A stretch of 64,000 bases of DNA from a virus: IMG/VR virus record IMGVR_UViG_3300022666_000353, positions 29,840-93,839 of that record; one strand, given 5' to 3'. Below the pieces are notes generated by a model that was not told where the DNA came from, did not search any database, and was given only the letters and a program-made list of their open reading frames with translations. A program made the translations under genes and the position numbers. Positions 3,941-59,803 of the stretch are shown one piece after another. Each line of letters begins with the position of its first letter. Position 1 is the stretch's first letter.

Positions 3941-5599
3941 TTAAAACCCAAGGGTACCCTGCTCTGTCTCTGTGTCCTTTTTTACCTTCTGGGCCTTTTT
4001 AAAGGAGCCTGTGGTCGGAGGCATTTTTACTTCTACTCCGCTCAGTATATCTTCAACGGTCAGTATCTGTATACGGGGATAGTCTTTTTGCCAGAGCTCT
4101 GACCGGTAGAAGCCAGCAGTCGCAGCCTCTTTGGTCATCTCACCCGTGGGAGCTTCAAGAGTGACAAATACCCCGATACAGGCGTCAGGTTCCCGTGAAA
4201 GAACGCCTACCAAATCTCGGATGTCTCCGCTCTTTACGTGTCCAGATTTCACCTGGACCAGAACCCGTTTGGCCTTTTTACTGGCGTCATCTATGAAGGT
4301 AATCACGCCGTCGATACCTTTATCTGAACCTTTCTTCCCCTTCTTGTCGCCTTCACTGCCGCCCAACGGCCTGGCCTGTATTAGTGACAGCGCCCACCAC
4401 TGGAACTGGTAGCGGTCTTCCTGGGCCAACTGCCGGGCTGCGCCCAGGTCTTCCGGTTCGCCAATCACATCATAGTCCTTGCATGGCACCAGGTCATACA
4501 TATCTTTGAGCCGGAGTTTGTGCATGGCAATCGCCAGATGGGTGATGTCAATGCCAATCCACTTGCGGCCCAATTTCTGTGCCGCTGCAATTGCGGTTCC
4601 ACAGCCGGAGAATGGGTCGAGCACAATGTCCCCTTCATTGCTCGACGCCTGGATGACGCGCTCCAGGAGCACAAGGGGTTTCTGGGTAGGATAACCTAAA
4701 CGTTCTGCCGCTTGTGCGCCAATAGGAGGTATGTCTAATAGAATATCTTGCAGGGCTATACCTTTAACCTCATCCAAGTACCGCTTGTAAGCAGGGACCC
4801 CCCCTTTCGGAGGCCAATAGATTCTCCCCTTTTTATCCAGTTCTTCGAGGTTTTCAATGGTATATTTCCAGTGGTTACCCTTTGCAGTTACATCAACGCC
4901 TCTCCATGACTCTCCTGAAGACCCGTGTCTAATTCCAGCCGCAGTCAGGTCACTCAGTCGGTAACGCCTTCCTTCGGTGTCAACATGCCGATAGAACTTC
5001 TCTACATAATCCGGGTCATGTGGAGTGAATTGCGGGTTCCATGTAAAGTCGCCCGATTTACTAAAGAACAACAATACATCGTGTACCGGGCCGTATCTTT
5101 TAGCTGAACTGTGGGCACTGGTCCGCTTCCAACAAATCTCATTTTGAAAATTCTGGACGCCAAACACTGTGTCTAGAATTATTTTTAAATAGTGACTCGC
5201 TGTAGGGTCACAGTGCAGGTAAAGACTTCCAGTTGGCTTCAATACCCGATGTAGCTCTACTAAACGAGCAGCCATCATCACCAGGTAGGCCATCATCTGG
5301 TTCGACCCAATAAACTGGCGCATGGCACTTATCATGGTGCTTACCTGAGGGTTGGAACTTTCAATAAGTTCGCTATAAATACTTTCTGCGGATTGGCCCC
5401 AGTGCCAGGAATCATCGAAGGCCGTGATTTGCGACTCGGAATCATGACCGCTTTCATCTTTGAATAAAACATTGTAAGAACGGCTGGAGTTGAAAGGCGG
5501 GTCCAGATAAATTAAATCTATACTTTCGTCAGGGATGTATTCCCGCAGGATACCAAGATTGTCCCCATAGAACAAAGTATTATTTTGTATGTGTTTCAC
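3941..5599 (-). CDS. beta-class N6A/N4C DNA methyltransferase with C-terminal Mrr-like endonuclease domain
   Basis: IYLDPPF (motif IV) precedes YPTQKP and DPFSGCGT (motif I); C-terminal DKGIDG...VQVKSG. Confidence 0.9.
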   Translation of the reverse strand: MKHIQNNTLFYGDNLGILREYIPDESIDLIYLDPPFNSSRSYNVLFKDESGHDSESQITAFDDSWHWGQSAESIYSELIESSNPQVSTMISAMRQFIGSNQMMAYLVMMAARLVELHRVLKPTGSLYLHCDPTASHYLKIILDTVFGVQNFQNEICWKRTSAHSSAKRYGPVHDVLLFFSKSGDFTWNPQFTPHDPDYVEKFYRHVDTEGRRYRLSDLTAAGIRHGSSGESWRGVDVTAKGNHWKYTIENLEELDKKGRIYWPPKGGVPAYKRYLDEVKGIALQDILLDIPPIGAQAAERLGYPTQKPLVLLERVIQASSNEGDIVLDPFSGCGTAIAAAQKLGRKWIGIDITHLAIAMHKLRLKDMYDLVPCKDYDVIGEPEDLGAARQLAQEDRYQFQWWALSLIQARPLGGSEGDKKGKKGSDKGIDGVITFIDDASKKAKRVLVQVKSGHVKSGDIRDLVGVLSREPDACIGVFVTLEAPTGEMTKEAATAGFYRSELWQKDYPRIQILTVEDILSGVEVKMPPTTGSFKKAQKVKKDTETEQGTLGF

Positions 5600-21705: not shown

Positions 21706-21745
21706 AATAACCTCTTCAAACGCGTACCAATAAAAAACACTAACA

Positions 21746-22197: not shown

Positions 22198-22553
22198 TGT
22201 CCAAACCTCCTGTTGATAGGTGTTTCATTTGCCTGCTTACGTACGCGCTCGATGTAATCCAACTCTGGGCTCCCCCCAGTAATGATTGGCGGCGGGTGGC
22301 ATTCTCGGCAAACGCAGAGAAGGTTAGTGTAGTGTTCTCGTGGGTCGCCCGCTGTGTCCCCCCGCCCAAATGTGTGGTGGACATCAGAACGTGGAGTTCT
22401 TTTTCCATGTAGGAAGAAACAAAAGACGCATAGGCTTCCATCACGCTCGATTGCAAGAGCCGATTGAACCCGCCTGTATTCCTGTAGGTCTTTTTTCCTC
22501 TGTTCTTCTTCACGGCGTTTATCCTTCTTCTGTGTTTTTGGCGCTGCTGGCAT
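22194..22553 (-). CDS. HNH-family nuclease-like protein
   Basis: RD..CxxC...HH...NL..VCxxCH. Confidence 0.75.
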   Translation of the reverse strand: MPAAPKTQKKDKRREEEQRKKDLQEYRRVQSALAIERDGSLCVFCFFLHGKRTPRSDVHHTFGRGDTAGDPREHYTNLLCVCRECHPPPIITGGSPELDYIERVRKQANETPINRRFGQ

Positions 22554-23197: not shown

Positions 23198-24157
23198 TTA
23201 CTTCTCCACAGGCAGCCACGGTACGTCACCAGGATTAAGGTGCAGAGATAAAGCAAACATCAGGCGGGTGAACGCGTGCGCCAGGTGGTCGTCTGATTTG
23301 TCTTGCGCCAGGTATCCGTAGATGTGAGAGAGTGCGTGATTTAAATGGTCGTTGATTGAGATGCGTCTCCAGTTGTTAGGCGCATAACGACGTGCCCCGT
23401 AGTCTAACACGTTCGCTAGTGCGAACATGGTCACAGGGTCAATCAGGTCAAACCGGTAGTCCAGCTTTGACTGCATACCACCGCTGGCGCTGACCGCAAT
23501 GGGCGCATCTTTTCCGATGCCCGAAATTTTATACGCCGTGACATCTGGGTAGGCACCAACCTTGCCTTCCTCCAACAAACTACGCATCTGGTCCAAGTTA
23601 TTTGCGATGGTGAACACAGCGGCGATGTTTTCAATGAACTCCACTACCTCGTCCCAAGTGTCCGCCCGAAACGCGTCAACGGTTGAGCCCTGATTATGGG
23701 TTCGGGTAAACAGCACCCGCTTTCCTGGGTGGTTGCGTAAGTTCTCCGGGTTGTCGTCAATAATTACGTCCGCAGGAATAAGGTCCTTGCGGTGGGTCAC
23801 CACGTACTGGGCTCTGTCCGGGTTGCCGTTATTCGCTGGAATAAACCCATACTCCACCAACCAACTAAATTTGTTAGGATGGTCGCGCACGGTCACAAAC
23901 AAGAGCTCGTGGCCTGCCTCCCGTAGAGCGTCTACCCCATCTTTGGCGGTGTATACCGGTGGTACAAAGCGGTACAAATTAAGGTCTTCCAGGTAGTCAT
24001 AAATTTTGGACCCGCACTCCGGCTTCACAAACTTCGTCAGGTCCCACTCTGTAATATCAAACGGCTCTACGGTGTCATCGTAGTCGCGGTTGTACAAATC
24101 CAACCAGGTCGGAAGCAGGTCGGCCACCACGTCGTCCACGTCAACTAGGATTTTCAT
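23198..24157 (-). CDS. 5'(3')-deoxyribonucleotidase (HAD/NT5C) fused to a DUF5664 dNTP diphosphohydrolase-like domain
   Basis: DVDDV, IIDD.P.N, HN; C-terminal RFDLI...VL.YGA..Y...NW...H...DHLAHA. Confidence 0.8.
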   Translation of the reverse strand: MKILVDVDDVVADLLPTWLDLYNRDYDDTVEPFDITEWDLTKFVKPECGSKIYDYLEDLNLYRFVPPVYTAKDGVDALREAGHELLFVTVRDHPNKFSWLVEYGFIPANNGNPDRAQYVVTHRKDLIPADVIIDDNPENLRNHPGKRVLFTRTHNQGSTVDAFRADTWDEVVEFIENIAAVFTIANNLDQMRSLLEEGKVGAYPDVTAYKISGIGKDAPIAVSASGGMQSKLDYRFDLIDPVTMFALANVLDYGARRYAPNNWRRISINDHLNHALSHIYGYLAQDKSDDHLAHAFTRLMFALSLHLNPGDVPWLPVEK

Positions 24158-24621
24158 TTTTGCACCCAAACTGTACGATACTCAGGAGCTTTAAGGTTTT
24201 CTTTGTAAACTTCTGACTGACTGTCCGCGCAGTACCCGGCAACCTGGTCAGCCATGTTGTTGTACCTATTCGGACCATGGGCTTTAATGTGTTCCGCAGA
24301 AATCCGATGACCGCCTTTATTAAGTGTATAAATAAGACGGGCCCAGATAGGTGTGTTTGTAGCCGGAGTAATTCCTAGCAGGACTTTGTTAATCCCACTG
24401 ATAACATACGTACTGTCCGTCATAATTTTTACGTCACACGGCTCGGGTAGTTTGGCCAGGCCGCCAATAACCGCCTCAGTTTCCATGGCGTTATTCGTAA
24501 CCAGACGGGCGTGACCACCCACAATAATGTGCCCGTCGTCTGAGACAATCACGGCAGCCCAGCCACCTTTACCTGGGTTACCCCTACTCGACCCGTCAGT
24601 CCAAATTTGTACTGATTTCAT
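24154..24621 (-). CDS. rnhA: ribonuclease HI
   Basis: TDGS..GNPG.GGWA, TNN.ME, TDS.YV, KAH, N..AD. Confidence 0.92.
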   Translation of the reverse strand: MKSVQIWTDGSSRGNPGKGGWAAVIVSDDGHIIVGGHARLVTNNAMETEAVIGGLAKLPEPCDVKIMTDSTYVISGINKVLLGITPATNTPIWARLIYTLNKGGHRISAEHIKAHGPNRYNNMADQVAGYCADSQSEVYKENLKAPEYRTVWVQK

Positions 24622-24813: not shown

Positions 24814-25103
24814 ACAACTAACCGTCCTAATCTTGTGATAACCGACACGTCCAAACTTTCTGGAGGAAGTTTCATACGTACGTACAGGGCCTCACGATAA
24901 GCTCGTTCTAATGCAGGTGTGACAAGGGGCTTTCCTGCCAACTCTCCCAGGTCGGCCCCCTGTCCTTTCAAGCGCATTGCAGCACCGTACGCGGCAGCGA
25001 TGTATATCAAAAGGTCGTACGACGGGTCGTCACTTTCTACCGTTAAAAAACCGTCAGTAACCGCCTTAGCGACCTCTTGAATACTCGCGCCGTAAGCTGC
25101 CAT
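24810..25103 (-). CDS. hypothetical protein
   Basis: Translationally coupled ORF. Confidence 0.55.
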   Translation of the reverse strand: MAAYGASIQEVAKAVTDGFLTVESDDPSYDLLIYIAAAYGAAMRLKGQGADLGELAGKPLVTPALERAYREALYVRMKLPPESLDVSVITRLGRLVV

Positions 25104-25504
25104 TAGAACGCGTATTCCTCGTCGTCGTCATCTTTTGAAGGCTTCGACTGGCCGGAGCCGCTCTTACCAGAAAGTTTCTTAAAGTCTTGCAGGGTGAACG
25201 TGGGGTACTCGCGTTCTTCCCCATCTTCAGTCTTGCCTTTCTGGAGGGAAAACTCCGTGGTTACGATGACCTTGTCACCTTTCTTCAGCAGCTTGTTAAC
25301 GGTCTCAGCCTGCGGACCCCAAGACGTTACGCGTATCCACGTCGTCTCCTCACGACCCTCGGCCCCATCCTTTCCGGGAATCCACTTCGTAACCGCGATT
25401 GAAAAATTTGTAACCGCCCGGCCAGACGCCAGATAACGCATCTCCGGGTCCCGGCCTAAGTTTCCAATAAACTGACACTGGTTTGCTAAATTAGCGAACG
25501 CCAT
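25103..25504 (-). CDS. ssb: single-stranded DNA-binding protein
   Basis: IGNLGRDPE.RY..SG.AV.NFSIAV; acidic C-terminal tail. Confidence 0.93.
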   Translation of the reverse strand: MAFANLANQCQFIGNLGRDPEMRYLASGRAVTNFSIAVTKWIPGKDGAEGREETTWIRVTSWGPQAETVNKLLKKGDKVIVTTEFSLQKGKTEDGEEREYPTFTLQDFKKLSGKSGSGQSKPSKDDDDEEYAF

Positions 25505-25531: not shown

Positions 25532-25588
25532 TTTACATAAGTTATGTTTCTGTGCTATAATTATATAATGGTTTTAATAATTTGTAAA
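25532..25588. promoter_or_regulatory. overlapping divergent sigma70 promoters
   Basis: TTTACA-N18-TATAAT on + and TTTACA-N17-TATAAT on -, sharing the palindrome TATAATTATA. Confidence 0.75.
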
Positions 25589-25601: not shown

Positions 25602-25847
25602 ATGGGTGTAGACTACAAACTAGAAAGCACGTTGTTAGACCGTCTGTTGTTGATAAACCTGATTAAGCAGCTAACGGCGAAACAACAGGCCACTGTTGCC
25701 CTACGAGCAGCCGGCTACAAACACAAAGAGATTGGTGCGATTTTTGGAATGACGCCTGCGTCAATCGGGTTCATTGAACGCCACGCCTTGCTCAGACTCC
25801 AACAACTTATACGGGAACAAAGCAATGACACAATCACACTTTCATAG
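25602..25847 (+). CDS. stand-alone sigma70 region-4 HTH protein
   Basis: LTAKQQATVALRAAGYKHKEIGAIFGMTPASI...RHALLRL. Confidence 0.8.
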   Translation: MGVDYKLESTLLDRLLLINLIKQLTAKQQATVALRAAGYKHKEIGAIFGMTPASIGFIERHALLRLQQLIREQSNDTITLS

Positions 25848-26097
25848 TTGCATGGCTTGTGGGAAAACAATCACGTGGGCATTCGCAATATGCGAAGACT
25901 GTGAGCGTATTTACGGAACGCGTACCCCACAGTGGCCGGAGTGGTTAAAGTTTCTGTGGCGTGACGAAGCGCGTAAACGCAGGCAAGCAAAACGTCGTAG
26001 CCAGTTCGAAGTTGCAGTAGACGCAGAGGTTCTCGACAACTTACGGGAAGAGGAATCAGGACGCAAAATTGCCGCACTCTTCGAAGAAATGAAATAA
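25825..26097 (+). CDS. Zn-finger protein coupled to the sigma4 gene
   Basis: CMAC-x10-CEDC, then helix WPEWLKFLWRDEARKRR. Confidence 0.7.
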   Translation: MTQSHFHSCMACGKTITWAFAICEDCERIYGTRTPQWPEWLKFLWRDEARKRRQAKRRSQFEVAVDAEVLDNLREEESGRKIAALFEEMK

Positions 26098-26244
26098 CAA
26101 ATTTGCGTGGAAATTTTCACGCAAATTGCAGTGCCGCACGTGAAGGTAGTTTAGATTTTTCATGCAATTCTATGAAAAAACAAAATTGCAATATCTGCCC
26201 ACAAAAAACCAGTGTATTTGCACAGTTTTTTGCAAAGGAGTGTT

Positions 26245-27060
26245 ATGAGTAACGACATCGTTCCAAAAGGGGAACCTATTACAAGCGACGAGGAGTGGCA
26301 GTCGATTGTTGAAAAGTTAGTTAACGAACTAAGGCCGTCAGAACTACCTGACAAAGTGGTTCGTGCAACAGAATATCTTCTTTCAGGCTGGCCGCGTTAT
26401 AAGGTGGCTCGTCAACTGCACGTTGACACAGCGACGATACGCAACTGGATTACGGAGTACCCCAGTGTGGCAGCTACGCTGGCGCTTAGAGACAAGCTGC
26501 TCACTAAGTGGAGACTGGGAAAACTAGAACAGCAGTTCCAGCTTGCCATGGAGCGGTCGGAAGAAATTCTCAACATGGAGTTGGACGGAACCTACGTCAA
26601 CAGGGACGGAGAAAAGAGCTACGCAAATCCGAAGGTTCTACCGGTTCTTGCAGCGCAGGTGCGTTACATGATTGGCCTGGCGGTAGGACAGAAACTGGAT
26701 ATTCGCGTAACACACGAGATGGGGGAGACTGTGCTTAAGGCGCGACAGGATGCGCTTGATTACCTGGCGGACAGGCTGTCTGAAAAAGACGAACCGGTAG
26801 AAGTTACGTACCGCGTTATTGACGAGAGAAGAGACACAGTGGGACCGGTGTTAAACGAACACGGTGAGCCGCCATTCGGGAAGATGGGTGAACTCGACAC
26901 CAACGAAGAGGGCACACAGTGCCACGTGTGCGGAAAACGGTTTAACGGTACAGGGCTTGTCAAACACATATCAGCCGCGCACGACACGACCGTAGAGGAT
27001 TACGAACTGCTCTACATGCTTCCTGAAGGAGCCGTTCGTAGCCTGGGCAGGGACATTTAG
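26245..27060 (+). CDS. probable terminase small subunit (HTH; C-terminal C2H2/Ros-like finger)
   Basis: HTH KVARQLHVDTATIRNW; CHVC...H...H; directly upstream of TerL. Confidence 0.65.
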   Translation: MSNDIVPKGEPITSDEEWQSIVEKLVNELRPSELPDKVVRATEYLLSGWPRYKVARQLHVDTATIRNWITEYPSVAATLALRDKLLTKWRLGKLEQQFQLAMERSEEILNMELDGTYVNRDGEKSYANPKVLPVLAAQVRYMIGLAVGQKLDIRVTHEMGETVLKARQDALDYLADRLSEKDEPVEVTYRVIDERRDTVGPVLNEHGEPPFGKMGELDTNEEGTQCHVCGKRFNGTGLVKHISAAHDTTVEDYELLYMLPEGAVRSLGRDI

Positions 27061-27074
27061 CACAAACTGTGTCC

Positions 27075-27090
27075 AAATCGTTTGGAGGGT
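27075..27090 (+). promoter_or_regulatory. late-promoter motif (degenerate copy)
   Basis: AAATCGTTTGGAGGGT upstream of terL. Confidence 0.5.
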
Positions 27091-27121: not shown

Positions 27122-29050
27122 ATGAGAGCTGAACAATTACAAAGCCTAACAAAACGCGACCCGCTGGCCTTCGGAGTAGCTTACGTAGATTTACTGGAAG
27201 ACCGACACTGGGAAGTATCAACCAGGGCGTGGGCTACAGAAATATACCAGGCAGTCAACCCGTGGTATATAGAGCGTGACCCAATTGGACGCGCCCGGCG
27301 CTTGGTGGTTACGAAATCAACGCAGGCCGGTATCAGTACAATGGCACTTACGAAGATGCTGCACTTTGCCACCAACTGGCCTGTCCGTATTTTCTACACA
27401 CTGCCGCGCCAGCAAGATGTGCTGGACATGGTAACCACACGTATGGACCCGATGATTGCAGCGTCACCGTACCTGCGGTCCAAACTTGGACAACCAGACA
27501 GCGCACATGCCAAGAGAATAGGTGATAGCTATGTATTCTTTATGGAGCTCAGTGTAGAGCCCCGTATGATGCCGGCTGATTCGTTGTTCGTGGACGAGGT
27601 TGACCTGAGTAACCCGGACTTTATGAGCACGGCGCTCAACCGCCTGGATGCTTCCAGATGGAAACTATCAACCTATCTATCCACGCCTACTGTACCCAAT
27701 TATGGCATCCACGGTCTATACAATGCGTCTGATATGCGCCAGTGGTTCGTTAAGTGCCCGGCATGTAATCACGAACAGACGCTTGACTGGGAACAGAACC
27801 TCCGAGTTGTGGGTGCACAAAACAATCCTACGCGTGTGTACTACGCATGTACTCAGTGCGGGGAAGAGTTGACGGTTCCGCACATACAGACCGGGCGTTG
27901 GGTAGCCGAACATCCAGAACGCTCTGACGACGTTGTTGGGTACCATGTCCACCAGATGCTCACTACACCCGCATGGGACATGTACAAAATATACAGAGAC
28001 CCCCAGACTAAATTGGTGGAGTTCTACCGCAAGCGATTAGGCAAACCGTATGAAATTGGCGGAGGGTCTCTCGAGCGGGACGACATCCTGGCTACCTGCT
28101 TTGATGCACCATACGACCCGGAGCCGGGATGGGACGGTAAGTCTACGTACTACCTCGGGGCTGACCAGGGAAACGAACTTCAGGTGCTGGTGTCCAAAGT
28201 CGATAAAAATAGTCGCAGACCGAAGATTGTGCATATCGAACTCATTCCGATGAACAAAGGGTTTGATAGGCTTGCGCAACTTATTGACCTGTACCACGTT
28301 CGAAAGGCTGTTGTAGATGGAAGTCCAAACCGGCATGAATCTATACGGTTGGTAAAACGCTTCCCGGGACGGGTGTTGATTGCAGACTACATTGAACAGA
28401 AAGAACCTTACATTGCCAAACGCGGAATGAAAGAGTTCCCCGACGTTCTTACAAATGTAACCATCAACCGAACAACAGGGTTCGATGGACTGATGGCGTC
28501 TATTAAAGACGGGCAGTGGCAACTTCCAGGAACACCACCCAACCTAAGCCCAGACGTTGAGTTAGTGATTGACCATCTCACCGCGCTTAAACGCGACATC
28601 GAAACCAGGCGCACACAATCCGGCGAAACCCAGGTGGCCGTGTGGCGTAAGCTACGAGCAGAGCACCTCGCGCACGCCTGGTTATACATGAAAACCGCGA
28701 TGGAAGTAGAGAAGGGTCGCACCATGCGTGTCGCAGTTATTGGTAGCCATACTGCATCCGAACCCACGCCTGATACGGGAGACGTGTACAGACCAAAAGA
28801 CGAAACCATCGTGGGTATAACAGAGTTCCTGGCTGAAGTTCCCAAAGAGCAGCTATCAGAGTTTTTGGGGCACTACGCAGCAGGAGAACAATACGACCTG
28901 CCGTTCCCGTTATCCTATAAACTTAAGCGTGTTCTGGACCAGGGTTACGAAGACCAGGACATTGCTTGGGTCATGGAACTTTTAATAAACCAGAAGAAAA
29001 GCGCACCGAAGGTATTGACAGTTGATAGAAACGATGCTATAATTATATAG
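27122..29050 (+). CDS. terL: terminase large subunit (lambda GpA-like)
   Basis: KSTQAGIS Walker A, VDEVD Walker B, STP motif, CxxC insert, GADQG nuclease. Confidence 0.9.
   Translation: MRAEQLQSLTKRDPLAFGVAYVDLLEDRHWEVSTRAWATEIYQAVNPWYIERDPIGRARRLVVTKSTQAGISTMALTKMLHFATNWPVRIFYTLPRQQDVLDMVTTRMDPMIAASPYLRSKLGQPDSAHAKRIGDSYVFFMELSVEPRMMPADSLFVDEVDLSNPDFMSTALNRLDASRWKLSTYLSTPTVPNYGIHGLYNASDMRQWFVKCPACNHEQTLDWEQNLRVVGAQNNPTRVYYACTQCGEELTVPHIQTGRWVAEHPERSDDVVGYHVHQMLTTPAWDMYKIYRDPQTKLVEFYRKRLGKPYEIGGGSLERDDILATCFDAPYDPEPGWDGKSTYYLGADQGNELQVLVSKVDKNSRRPKIVHIELIPMNKGFDRLAQLIDLYHVRKAVVDGSPNRHESIRLVKRFPGRVLIADYIEQKEPYIAKRGMKEFPDVLTNVTINRTTGFDGLMASIKDGQWQLPGTPPNLSPDVELVIDHLTALKRDIETRRTQSGETQVAVWRKLRAEHLAHAWLYMKTAMEVEKGRTMRVAVIGSHTASEPTPDTGDVYRPKDETIVGITEFLAEVPKEQLSEFLGHYAAGEQYDLPFPLSYKLKRVLDQGYEDQDIAWVMELLINQKKSAPKVLTVDRNDAIII
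29015..29043 (+). promoter_or_regulatory. consensus sigma70 promoter inside the end of terL
   Basis: TTGACA-N17-TATAAT with TGn extension. Confidence 0.85.
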
Positions 29051-29735
29051 CATTATTTAAAATTGTTAGGTTGGTCAGTAAACCTAACGCACATACAGCA
29101 ACACACCTCGCTGGGTGGGCCAAGTTTCTGCGGAAGCGCGTAGGCTCCCCCCGGGAAGCGGCTGACGCGGCACCGGTTCCTGTACTTCCTCGTTATCACG
29201 ATAGTGCAGAGACAAACTGGCGGTACGTTGACTGGGCTTTGCCGCCCGCTCAACATCACAGGCTCACCCCAGAGTGAGCGAAACGAGTCTGTGTCCAACT
29301 TAAAGCTCACAAACCACCCGAACCCCCCGTCCTGCTTGGGGGCGTAGCGAAGACCCGATGACACAACGTCGGTCACCTGATAACGGCAGACCTGGGCAGG
29401 TCAATATAAGCTACGCTTTGAATGCAAACATTCTTAACCTCCCCCGGATAGGGGGATTCTACCTACCTGCCGAGGTGACGAGTACGTTATACCCGACGCA
29501 GTACGTCATATCTGTATAAAGGAACTAACAGATATAAGACACAGGGCGGCAGGTGTGAAGATACCCATACTGCGCTGTGACTATCTTATACAGTTAGTTT
29601 CATTAGCACATTTATTCTAAGATAGTACGAATGAATAATAGGCCGCTGTGTAATCTTATTATTATTTTTATGTACCGTCAGGTAGATTGTTACACAGTCA
29701 ACCCCTGTGACTAAGGGATAGTTATACCTATTTTT
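29050..29735 (+). ncRNA. candidate large structured ncRNA (or structured origin)
   Basis: No SD-led ORF; at least 12 helices including GTTAGGTT/AACCTAAC, GCGTAGC/GCTACGC, ACCTGCCG/CGGCAGGT. Confidence 0.55.
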
Positions 29736-29746
29736 ATGGAGGTGGT

Positions 29747-31058: not shown

Positions 31059-31060
31059 AT

Positions 31061-31087
31061 TTTCCTTGTGAAAACCGTTTGAAGAGT
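31061..31087 (+). promoter_or_regulatory. late-promoter motif
   Basis: TTTCC-N10-CGTTTGAAGAGT before the portal gene. Confidence 0.75.
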
Positions 31088-33046: not shown

Positions 33047-33054
33047 TTTTGTTT

Positions 33055-33080
33055 TTTCCACGTGAAATCGTTTGAAGAGT
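33055..33080 (+). promoter_or_regulatory. late-promoter motif
   Basis: TTTCC-N9-CGTTTGAAGAGT. Confidence 0.75.
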
Positions 33081-36779: not shown

Positions 36780-36781
36780 CT

Positions 36782-36808
36782 TTTCCTTGTGGAAATCGTT
36801 TGAAGAAT
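36782..36808 (+). promoter_or_regulatory. late-promoter motif
   Basis: TTTCC-N10-CGTTTGAAGAAT. Confidence 0.7.
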
Positions 36809-39165: not shown

Positions 39166-39178
39166 CTGTATTTTGTTT

Positions 39179-39204
39179 TTTCCACGTGAAATCGTTTGAA
39201 GAGT
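39179..39204 (+). promoter_or_regulatory. late-promoter motif
   Basis: TTTCC-N9-CGTTTGAAGAGT, identical to the 33055 copy. Confidence 0.75.
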
Positions 39205-56899: not shown

Positions 56900-56928
56900 T
56901 TGACAGGAACGTGTTTTGTCGCTATAAT
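56900..56928 (+). promoter_or_regulatory. consensus sigma70 promoter
   Basis: TTGACA-N17-TATAAT. Confidence 0.8.
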
Positions 56929-56972
56929 TATAGTCTATAATGTAGTAGTGAAAATAGGAGGATTTAAAATCA

Positions 56973-57350: not shown

Positions 57351-57402
57351 CTTATCGGTATGTCGTGTGAAAAAGACCGTCAAATTTGATGGTCTTTTTC
57401 TT

Positions 57403-57428
57403 TTTCCACACTTATTCGTTTGAAGAGT
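57403..57428 (+). promoter_or_regulatory. late-promoter motif before the lysis module
   Basis: TTTCC-N9-CGTTTGAAGAGT. Confidence 0.7.
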
Positions 57429-59745: not shown

Positions 59746-59774
59746 TTGACATGCTTAGGTATTCATGCTATAAT
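59746..59774 (+). promoter_or_regulatory. consensus sigma70 promoter
   Basis: TTGACA-N17-TATAAT with TGn extension. Confidence 0.85.
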
Positions 59775-59803
59775 TATATAACAAAATATAATAGGAGATA
59801 ATT

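Follow-up and report, generated by a model that had tools for sequence, protein, structure and literature searches.

The switches by which phages turn on their late genes are known mostly from a few models, namely T4 gp55/gp33, lambda Q, P2 Ogr, Mu C and staphylococcal Ltr. In T4, late transcription is carried out by the host core polymerase with gp55 and gp33 (together with the gp45 clamp), which divide the roles of sigma regions 2 and 4 between them, gp55 being a diverged form of region 2 and gp33 a flap-binding protein that does not bind DNA. Within sigma factors, recognition of the -35 element falls to region 4, which is seated on the beta-flap of RNA polymerase. P2 Ogr and P4 Delta are small zinc-finger activators of late genes, of which Ogr acts alone, at an upstream dyad and via the alpha subunit. 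The WhiB-like (Wbl) proteins of Actinobacteria and actinophages bind region 4 of the host sigma-A and have an Fe-S cluster and a helical fold. To our knowledge, there is almost no phage molecular biology for the Chloroflexia. The Ltr late regulators (RinA/ArpU/LtrA-C) are those of Gram-positive temperate phages (PMC3753634, PMC3152322); the LtrA family resembles Sigma70_r4 and its genes lie immediately 5' of terS, and the site of action of Ltr proteins is a single repeat region ahead of terS (PMC3753634). A sigma factor distributed over two polypeptides has been described in SigO-RsoA (PMC7826278).

Here, we describe a pair of overlapping genes whose closest characterised analogue is, by comparison of their features, the LtrA (Sigma70_r4) class. 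The pair lies in a window of 64,000 nucleotides, bases 29840-93839 of the 93,839-bp IMG/VR provirus record IMGVR_UViG_3300022666_000353, which CheckV rates as 100% complete. An integrase gene stands at the left end of the record, a leftward arm carries replication and nucleotide genes (DNA polymerase A, ribonucleotide reductase, ThyX, RNase H and SSB) and a rightward arm carries the packaging, head and tail genes. A preliminary description had placed the pair as the first unit of the rightward arm, ahead of the terminase, and this is its position: the SSB gene diverges from it, and a terS-like gene and terL follow (Table 1). Among 50,697 phage records, the pair region found no nucleotide match by megablast, nor did P0001 or P0002 find one by tblastn, and terL is about 26% identical to its best cultured relatives, so the phage has no close cultured relative. 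The source is a temperate phage, and its host phylum is most likely Chloroflexota, because a prophage on a 255-kb Chloroflexia MAG contig (L013) shows a gene arrangement near-identical to that of the window. On the minus strand the window also holds a 552-aa protein in which an N6/N4 DNA methylase is joined to an Mrr-type restriction endonuclease domain (3941-5599), and a 5'-deoxynucleotidase (NT5C) fused to the N-terminal domain of a dATP/dGTP diphosphohydrolase (23198-24169). A Z-base genome was considered and rejected: the latter fusion is present, but the record is without a PurZ-type adenylosuccinate synthetase.

Table 1. Positions in the window of the gene pair, its neighbours and the associated sequence elements
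Feature	Position	Strand	Remarks
Second late box alone	21713..21722	-	T-tract upstream, no CC; 7 nt before ATG, leftward arm
SSB gene	25103-25504	-	Divergent from the pair
Host-type (sigma-70 class) promoter of the pair	25532..25561	+	TTTACA-18-TATAAT, TG-extended, 11/12 matches
Opposing promoter for the leftward SSB arm	25560..25588	-	TTTACA-17-TATAAT
P0001, 81-aa sigma region-4-only HTH	25602..25847	+	Assigned by Pfam, NCBIfam, PDB profile and orthologue alignment
P0002, 90-aa Cys4 zinc-ribbon protein	25825..26097	+	WPxWLxxL(W) helix running into basic RERRR helix
28-bp near-perfect palindrome	26100..26127	.	Directly 3' of the Zn gene stop, 93% complementary
terS-like gene (N-terminal HTH, C-terminal C2H2 finger)	26236..27060	+	Directly after the pair in all close relatives
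Weak late box variant CGTTTGGAGG	27061..27088	+	33 nt before terL
terL, large terminase	27122..29050	+	phrog_675, E 1.6e-90
Late motif copy	31060..31085	+	After terminator hairpin, before portal gene (31129)
Late motif copy	33054..33078	+	14 nt before ATG of first head-module gene (33093)
Late motif copy	36781..36806	+	After terminator, before head-tail adaptor gene (36835)
Late motif copy	39178..39202	+	Before major tail protein gene (39299)
Late motif copy	57402..57426	+	After terminator, before unassigned gene downstream of tail-fibre genes

An 81-aa helix-turn-helix (HTH) protein confined to sigma region 4 had been claimed to overlap a 90-aa CxxC-CxxC protein, and both reading frames are as claimed, with an overlap of 23 nt. 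The first of them, P0001, matches Pfam Sigma70_r4_2 with an E of 2e-5 and 24.6 bits, just below the cut-off of 25.7, and aligns with the NCBIfam ECF-sigma superfamily model over positions 108-164 of 165 only, i.e. it covers only the last third of sigma models, the C-terminal region 4. Aligned with hhalign, it falls on residues 135-180 of RpoE (E 9e-4). In eight syntenic orthologues, 71-88 aa long, the usual pattern of region 4 is seen and the typical DNA-recognition helix is kept in the alignment, and two of them pass the Pfam cut-offs (L013, Sigma70_r4 at 33 bits; L019, r4_2 at 27.3 bits). A sequence search of the PDB with a two-orthologue profile gave 47 sequences, almost all of them region 4 of ECF, FliA/WhiG, RpoS and primary sigmas, and no LuxR-type regulator was among the 47. 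P0001 is not the tail of a longer, broken sigma, because a spacer of 97 nt is all that separates it from the divergent SSB gene upstream. By sequence comparison, the assignment of P0001 as a lone sigma region 4 is confirmed.

Like LtrA, P0001 is a small protein similar to sigma region 4 only. Both P0001 and the LtrA of phage 37 (YP_240149) match Sigma70_r4 weakly, and hhalign detects no homology between the two (probability 0.2%, E 0.31, 13 columns). The gene order that is characteristic of Ltr regulators (PMC3753634) is found here and in seven relatives. The HTH proteins described here differ from LtrA in having 71-88 aa and no N-terminal domain, in having a conserved and sometimes fused Zn-protein partner which LtrA is without, in a candidate target that is a motif repeated along the late arm instead of one site before terS, and in hosts that are most likely Chloroflexota instead of Gram-positive bacteria.

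A full-length sigma factor or an RNA polymerase encoded elsewhere in the genome would offer another source of late transcription, as the preliminary description pointed out; neither a full-length sigma nor a match to a T7-type RNA polymerase was found in the complete record. Sigma region 2 (PF04542) has no match in six frames over the whole 93.8-kb record, and the ECF full-length model locates none either. The ECF model matches only P0001 and, faintly, a ParB; the second sigma-4-like match in the record is this ParB and was rejected as a sigma. For a T7-type RNA polymerase (PF00940) there is likewise no match in the 93.8-kb record, an absence that carries less weight, as this model was run without a positive control.

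The second protein, P0002, begins with an ATG matching the starts of its orthologues and has the cysteine pattern CxxC-x10-CxxC. It falls into no family in Pfam, NCBIfam or PHROGs and is, judged from its sequence, the founding member here of an undescribed family. When 1.84 billion cluster representatives were searched with a profile of P0002 and its L003 orthologue, 309 were found at E <= 1e-3 and 54 at E <= 1e-10, mostly proteins of 65-100 aa. Their signature reads H-x-C-x2/3-C-G-K-x-I-T, then F-x-x-C-x-x-C-E-x-x-Y-G, five residues, W-P-x-W-L-x-x-L and a run like D-x-Q-R-E-R-R-R. Scanning 114 members gave generic zinc-ribbon signals only in Pfam and nothing useful in PHROGs; a profile of 114 sequences retrieved 12 unnamed proteins in a word-indexed search, and such searches with the single sequences of P0001 and P0002 recovered the queries alone. 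In the AlphaFold model of P0002 (pLDDT 91, 114-sequence alignment), which is not a helical bundle, a small zinc ribbon is combined with three helices, one short, one long (39-61) and one at 67-89. Searched with this model, the PDB gave no Foldseek match at E <= 0.001, VIA-align wide reached a Z of 3.9 at best, on coiled coils, and BFVD returned generic zinc ribbons only; in the ESM Atlas, nothing beyond small clusters with no name or an automatic one turned up, which is at most a lead.

In the helix WPEWLKFLWRDEARKRR of P0002 the preliminary description had seen a loose likeness to sigma region 2.3-2.4. Neither this likeness nor a role of the zinc protein as an equivalent of region 2 is supported. 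The likeness is not significant (hhalign E 0.83, probability 0.05%), Sigma70_r2 gives no signal in P0002 or in 114 relatives, and Foldseek and VIA-align return no meaningful match of any kind; P0002 does not come out as the region 2-like partner of a two-subunit sigma. The origin of the idea can be traced, because the only local alignment that hhalign finds between the Zn family and E. coli RpoE joins that very stretch, as QWPEWLKFLWRDEAR, to residues 69-83 over 15 columns. The proposed check of both proteins by fold and profile thus identified P0001 as region 4 by its profiles and left P0002 without a meaningful match in Foldseek.

What P0002 has in common with Ogr and Delta is its small size, a Cys4 zinc motif, an origin in a temperate phage or satellite and a proposed link to late activation; it differs from them in its cysteine spacing and in having a sigma-4 domain as partner; Ogr_Delta has no Pfam match in P0002 at E up to 1, nor among the 114 relatives. 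With the Wbl proteins it would share the design of a small four-cysteine metal-binding protein that has conserved Trp residues and a basic, DNA-contacting C-terminal segment and works with sigma region 4. The Whib domain has no match in P0002 or in 114 family members, the cysteines are arranged as C-Xn-C-X2-C-X5-C in Wbl and as CxxC-x10-CxxC here, P0002 is modelled as a zinc ribbon, and the partner of Wbl is the host's own sigma.

Three independent lines of evidence, namely synteny, adjacency in metagenomes and natural fusions, show that P0001 and P0002 belong together. The order HTH, Zn, terS-like and terL recurs in seven further viral or prophage loci (L003, L005, L006, L013, L017, L018 and L019), where the HTH and Zn genes usually overlap by 4-23 nt and otherwise lie a few nt apart; the pair proteins are 36-44% identical to their syntenic orthologues. 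In a metagenome scan via the Zn protein we obtained 57 loci, 44 of which could be assessed with at least 300 nt upstream, and counted a pair if a sigma-4-like gene lay less than 300 nt upstream of the Zn gene on the same strand. Using local HMMs, before iteration, such a gene was found just upstream at 31 of the 44 loci, or in 21 of 27 lineages by a crude grouping, and after one profile iteration directly upstream at 38 of the 44; in the largest 'negative' lineage (10 loci) the sigma-4-like gene was confirmed by eye. In other lineages, the pair is separated from terS by further genes.

The natural fusions (P0023, P0027, P0029, P0041, P0046, P0068, P0133 and P0066) are proteins of about 150-180 aa with the Zn module at the N-terminus, a disordered linker and the HTH at the C-terminus. 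Sigma70_r4_2 is matched by 6 of 34 longer Zn-family members (best E 5e-10), and GerE by 4 fusions. An AF2 model of P0046 has two confident domains on either side of a disordered linker of about 25 residues and defines no contact between them (pTM 0.47). For the C-terminal domain, the best superposition is on an ECF sigma region 4 (3hug, TM 0.77-0.81, rmsd 1.3-2.8), and LuxR/GerE-type HTH proteins are also among the structural matches. From the fusions with their linker we infer that the pair corresponds to two tethered modules, as sigma-2 and sigma-4 are in ECF sigmas, and the conservation of the Zn partner suggests that the HTH does not act alone here. In a viral contig (L016), the fused gene is flanked by a methylase gene and the portal gene, and the stretch read shows no terminase gene next to it. 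The adjacent and co-transcribed genes expected of a two-subunit sigma are found in the 23-nt overlap, the 38 of 44 loci and the fusions. To this extent the locus is like SigO-RsoA, where the sigma function is split over two small co-transcribed polypeptides, one with region 4 (PMC7826278), a division that is only proposed for our pair. In SigO-RsoA as described there, however, recognisable sigma-2 and sigma-4 lie on separate chains (PMC7826278), whereas P0002 is a zinc ribbon without detectable region 2.

The host-type promoter that had been claimed for the pair is present (Table 1), and strong host-type promoters likewise stand 5' of the HTH gene in all relatives examined (L003, L005 and L006). 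It lies face to face with the promoter of the SSB arm, their -10 elements overlapping in the palindromic TATAATTATA, an inverted repeat, and RNA polymerase probably occupies only one of the two at a time. The -10 element gcTATAATTATA also occurs at two consensus promoters of the late arm, at about 56900-56935 and 59755-59790. A perfect TTGACA-17-TATAAT with TG lies within the 3' end of terL (window 29015-29746) and points into about 370 nt, lying between terL and the following plus-strand gene, that hold no credible ORF. The palindrome directly after the pair includes GTGGAAAT, as in the upstream half of the late motif, and the 138-nt spacer before the terS-like gene (26098-26235) contains six TTGCA/TTGCG words. 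Palindrome or spacer could serve as an operator, an RNA hairpin, an attenuator or part of a pac site; the palindrome was not seen at the equivalent place in L003.

The bipartite late motif on which the preliminary description built exists. The box CGTTTGAAGA has 7 copies in the window against 0.2 expected, and the full form TTTTCC-N9/10-CGTTTGAAGA has 5 against 0 expected (none in 100 shuffles); the form TTTTCC-N7-12-CGTTTGRAGR likewise has 5 against 0.0. All five copies are intergenic and on the plus strand, and three of them follow directly 3' of terminator hairpins. In four cases, from the window phage and two relatives, the distance from the end of the box to the start codon is 13-16 nt, with a Shine-Dalgarno in between; this spacing would put the transcription start within a few bases of the box, and thus suggests a compact core promoter and not a distant activator site. 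The motif is unlike the phage's own early promoters of the TTGACA/TATAAT class and may be read with a -10 in CGT and a -35 in the T-tract. Other readings of the letters were rejected. For sigma-54, in GTGGAAAT-CGTTTG, the copies differ in the GG and their spacing falls 1-2 bases short of GG-N10-GC; for an ECF-type promoter (GGAAC-like -35, CGT -10), the two words abut and are not 16-17 nt apart; and a TATGTG/T word 13-15 nt after three copies was treated as chance, its spacing being variable and the word being absent from the others.

That the motif should accompany the pair across phages proved correct in part. The second box is kept as CGWTTGWAGA, with a preceding T-tract, in G003, G002 and L013, and it stands before the portal gene in L016, the phage with a fused gene; L013 also has CGATTGAAGG before terL, similar to the weak variant in the window. 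In a more distant 98.9-kb relative (G001, L008-L009), the box occurs as ATTGTAGAAAGRTACAWT before tRNA clusters (for example at record positions 22323, 26407, 31336 and 40974), and many of the protein-coding blocks that follow the pair have ordinary promoters of the TTGACA/TATAAT type. The box was not found in the short contigs of distant pair-carrying lineages and may therefore be clade-specific. The upstream half of the motif varies between phages, as the HTH does, in a set with too few sequences for covariation. Two small phage proteins and a compact late promoter unlike host promoters recall T4 gp55/gp33; the T4 system differs in that the recognisable half here is region 4 with a DNA-reading helix, and there is no homology.

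We read the pair as a two-part late-promoter factor that works with the host RNA polymerase, a reading to which we give about an even chance, and most likely it is the virion genes that the pair switches on. Both proteins would be made from the strong host-type promoter at the head of the rightward arm, their translation probably coupled, and would form the two halves of one phage transcription factor. P0001 would act as a free-standing region 4, and in P0002 the Trp-rich helix would pack on the zinc ribbon and continue as an exposed arginine-rich helix. Together they would steer the polymerase of the host towards compact late promoters (T-tract/TTCC, 9-10 nt, CGTTTGAAGA), and these would restart transcription after each terminator, before the portal, head, adaptor and tail genes. 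P0001 and P0002 would thereby be expected to bind each other, to bind RNA polymerase and to act on the late motif. This reading is supported by the conservation of the pair in gene order across loci, by the Zn-HTH single-chain fusions, and by the record holding no other match to sigma region 2 or to a T7-type polymerase. It is further supported by a motif that precedes virion genes within core promoter distance, by the recurrence of the second box in pair-carrying and fused-gene phages, and by a position that matches that of the Ltr late activators (PMC3753634). Of the composite sigma or appropriation of host sigma that had been proposed earlier, the pairing, the position, the lack of a rival sigma and the second box stand, and a part for P0002 as region 2 is not supported. 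Several observations speak against a late factor: the constitutive-looking host promoter implies an unexpected timing, unless it is repressed in the lysogen; the predicted structure of P0046 shows no fixed contact between its domains; in G001 ordinary promoters lie downstream of the pair and the box precedes tRNA clusters; and the box is not seen in the short contigs of distant pair lineages. Any of the many unassigned ORFs of the phage could also be the real late factor.

Could the pair instead be a sigma factor in the full sense? The pair and the fusions of about 150 aa would then represent a minimal sigma in which P0001 as region 4 is tethered, covalently or not, to a module that replaces region 2 and displaces the host sigma. 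In this scheme a zinc-ribbon/arginine-rich-helix module of about 60 residues would bind the beta-prime clamp, read or melt the CGTTTGAAGA box and bring core RNA polymerase to TTTTCC-N9/10-CGTTTGAAGA promoters in widespread uncultured phages. The fusions, with N-domain, linker of about 25 disordered residues and sigma-4, do mimic ECF sigmas, region 2 is found nowhere in the record, and the late signal, 13-16 nt away from start codons, has the look of a compact core promoter that differs from TTGACA/TATAAT; SigO-RsoA offers a precedent for sigma domains on two polypeptides (PMC7826278). Region 2.3-2.4 is where the Zn family finds its sole local alignment to RpoE, but this alignment is not significant, and Sigma70_r2 matches neither P0002 nor its relatives. 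Moreover, the modelled zinc ribbon with single long helices has no meaningful structural match, and some 60 residues are very few for both clamp binding and promoter melting, so that we regard a true minimal sigma as improbable. A regulator of narrower reach, binding one operator and controlling only the packaging operon or the divergent early and late promoters, is possible, if unlikely. Ltr proteins do act at a single repeat region upstream of terS (PMC3753634), candidate operators are at hand in the palindrome directly after the pair and in the face-to-face promoters (25532-25588), and the LuxR/GerE-type matches of the fusions, structural ones to the C-terminal domain and GerE in four of them, would suit such a protein. 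The HTH profiles, however, match sigma region 4 almost exclusively and no LuxR-type regulators, the palindrome is not at the same place in L003, and the late motif would be left without a reader.

A part in packaging, in which the pair helps the small terminase to recognise the pac/cos region, would agree with its constant place beside terS/terL in the close clade and with the TTGCA-rich spacer before terS. We hold it to be very unlikely: the fused gene of L016 precedes the portal gene with no adjacent terminase gene in the stretch read, other genes intervene between the pair and terS in other lineages, the phage already has a separate terS-like protein that carries an HTH of its own, and the sigma-4 fold and the fusion architecture are of the transcription-factor type. 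The proteins might also act on the host alone, with a sigma-4 decoy and the Zn protein sequestering or remodelling the host RNA polymerase (beta-flap) or sigma, so that host transcription is shut off and nothing is activated. Early expression from a strong host-type promoter would fit such a take-over, and the flap and sigma region 4 are well-known targets of phage proteins such as T4 AsiA and gp33. P23-45 gp39 is a further one (PMC3950348). Yet the recognition helix of the HTH remains typical of DNA binders and the domain is conserved as one of the DNA-binding type, a temperate phage with host-type early promoters needs the activity of the host sigma, and the late motif would go unexplained, which makes a take-over hardly probable at all.

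The two-part late-promoter factor that we prefer would belong to a module, encoded as a pair or as one fused chain, that is conserved in dozens of uncultured phage lineages and at least one Chloroflexia prophage, and that comes with a candidate target in the form of a statistically solid late-promoter motif. If the Zn module substitutes for sigma region 2, it would represent a new way of building a promoter-specificity factor. If the Zn protein is an activator or adaptor, a large unnamed family has been identified, together with a handle for annotating the late switch in these phages.

Besides the architectures described above, the Zn family includes tandem Zn modules, a fusion with a GIY-YIG nuclease and a recurrent C-terminal RYAPYxDExxNRxYRxANGI (variant architectures in P0004, P0066, P0092, P0052, P0075, P0087, P0099, P0102, P0148 and P0149). 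On an Anaerolineaceae MAG contig (L014:3974-4213), a Zn-family gene without an adjoining HTH gene lies in what appears to be an integrated element of small size. Its neighbours are an AAA-type replication protein and a tRNA-like stretch, and the setting recalls P4 Delta and similar late activators of satellites.
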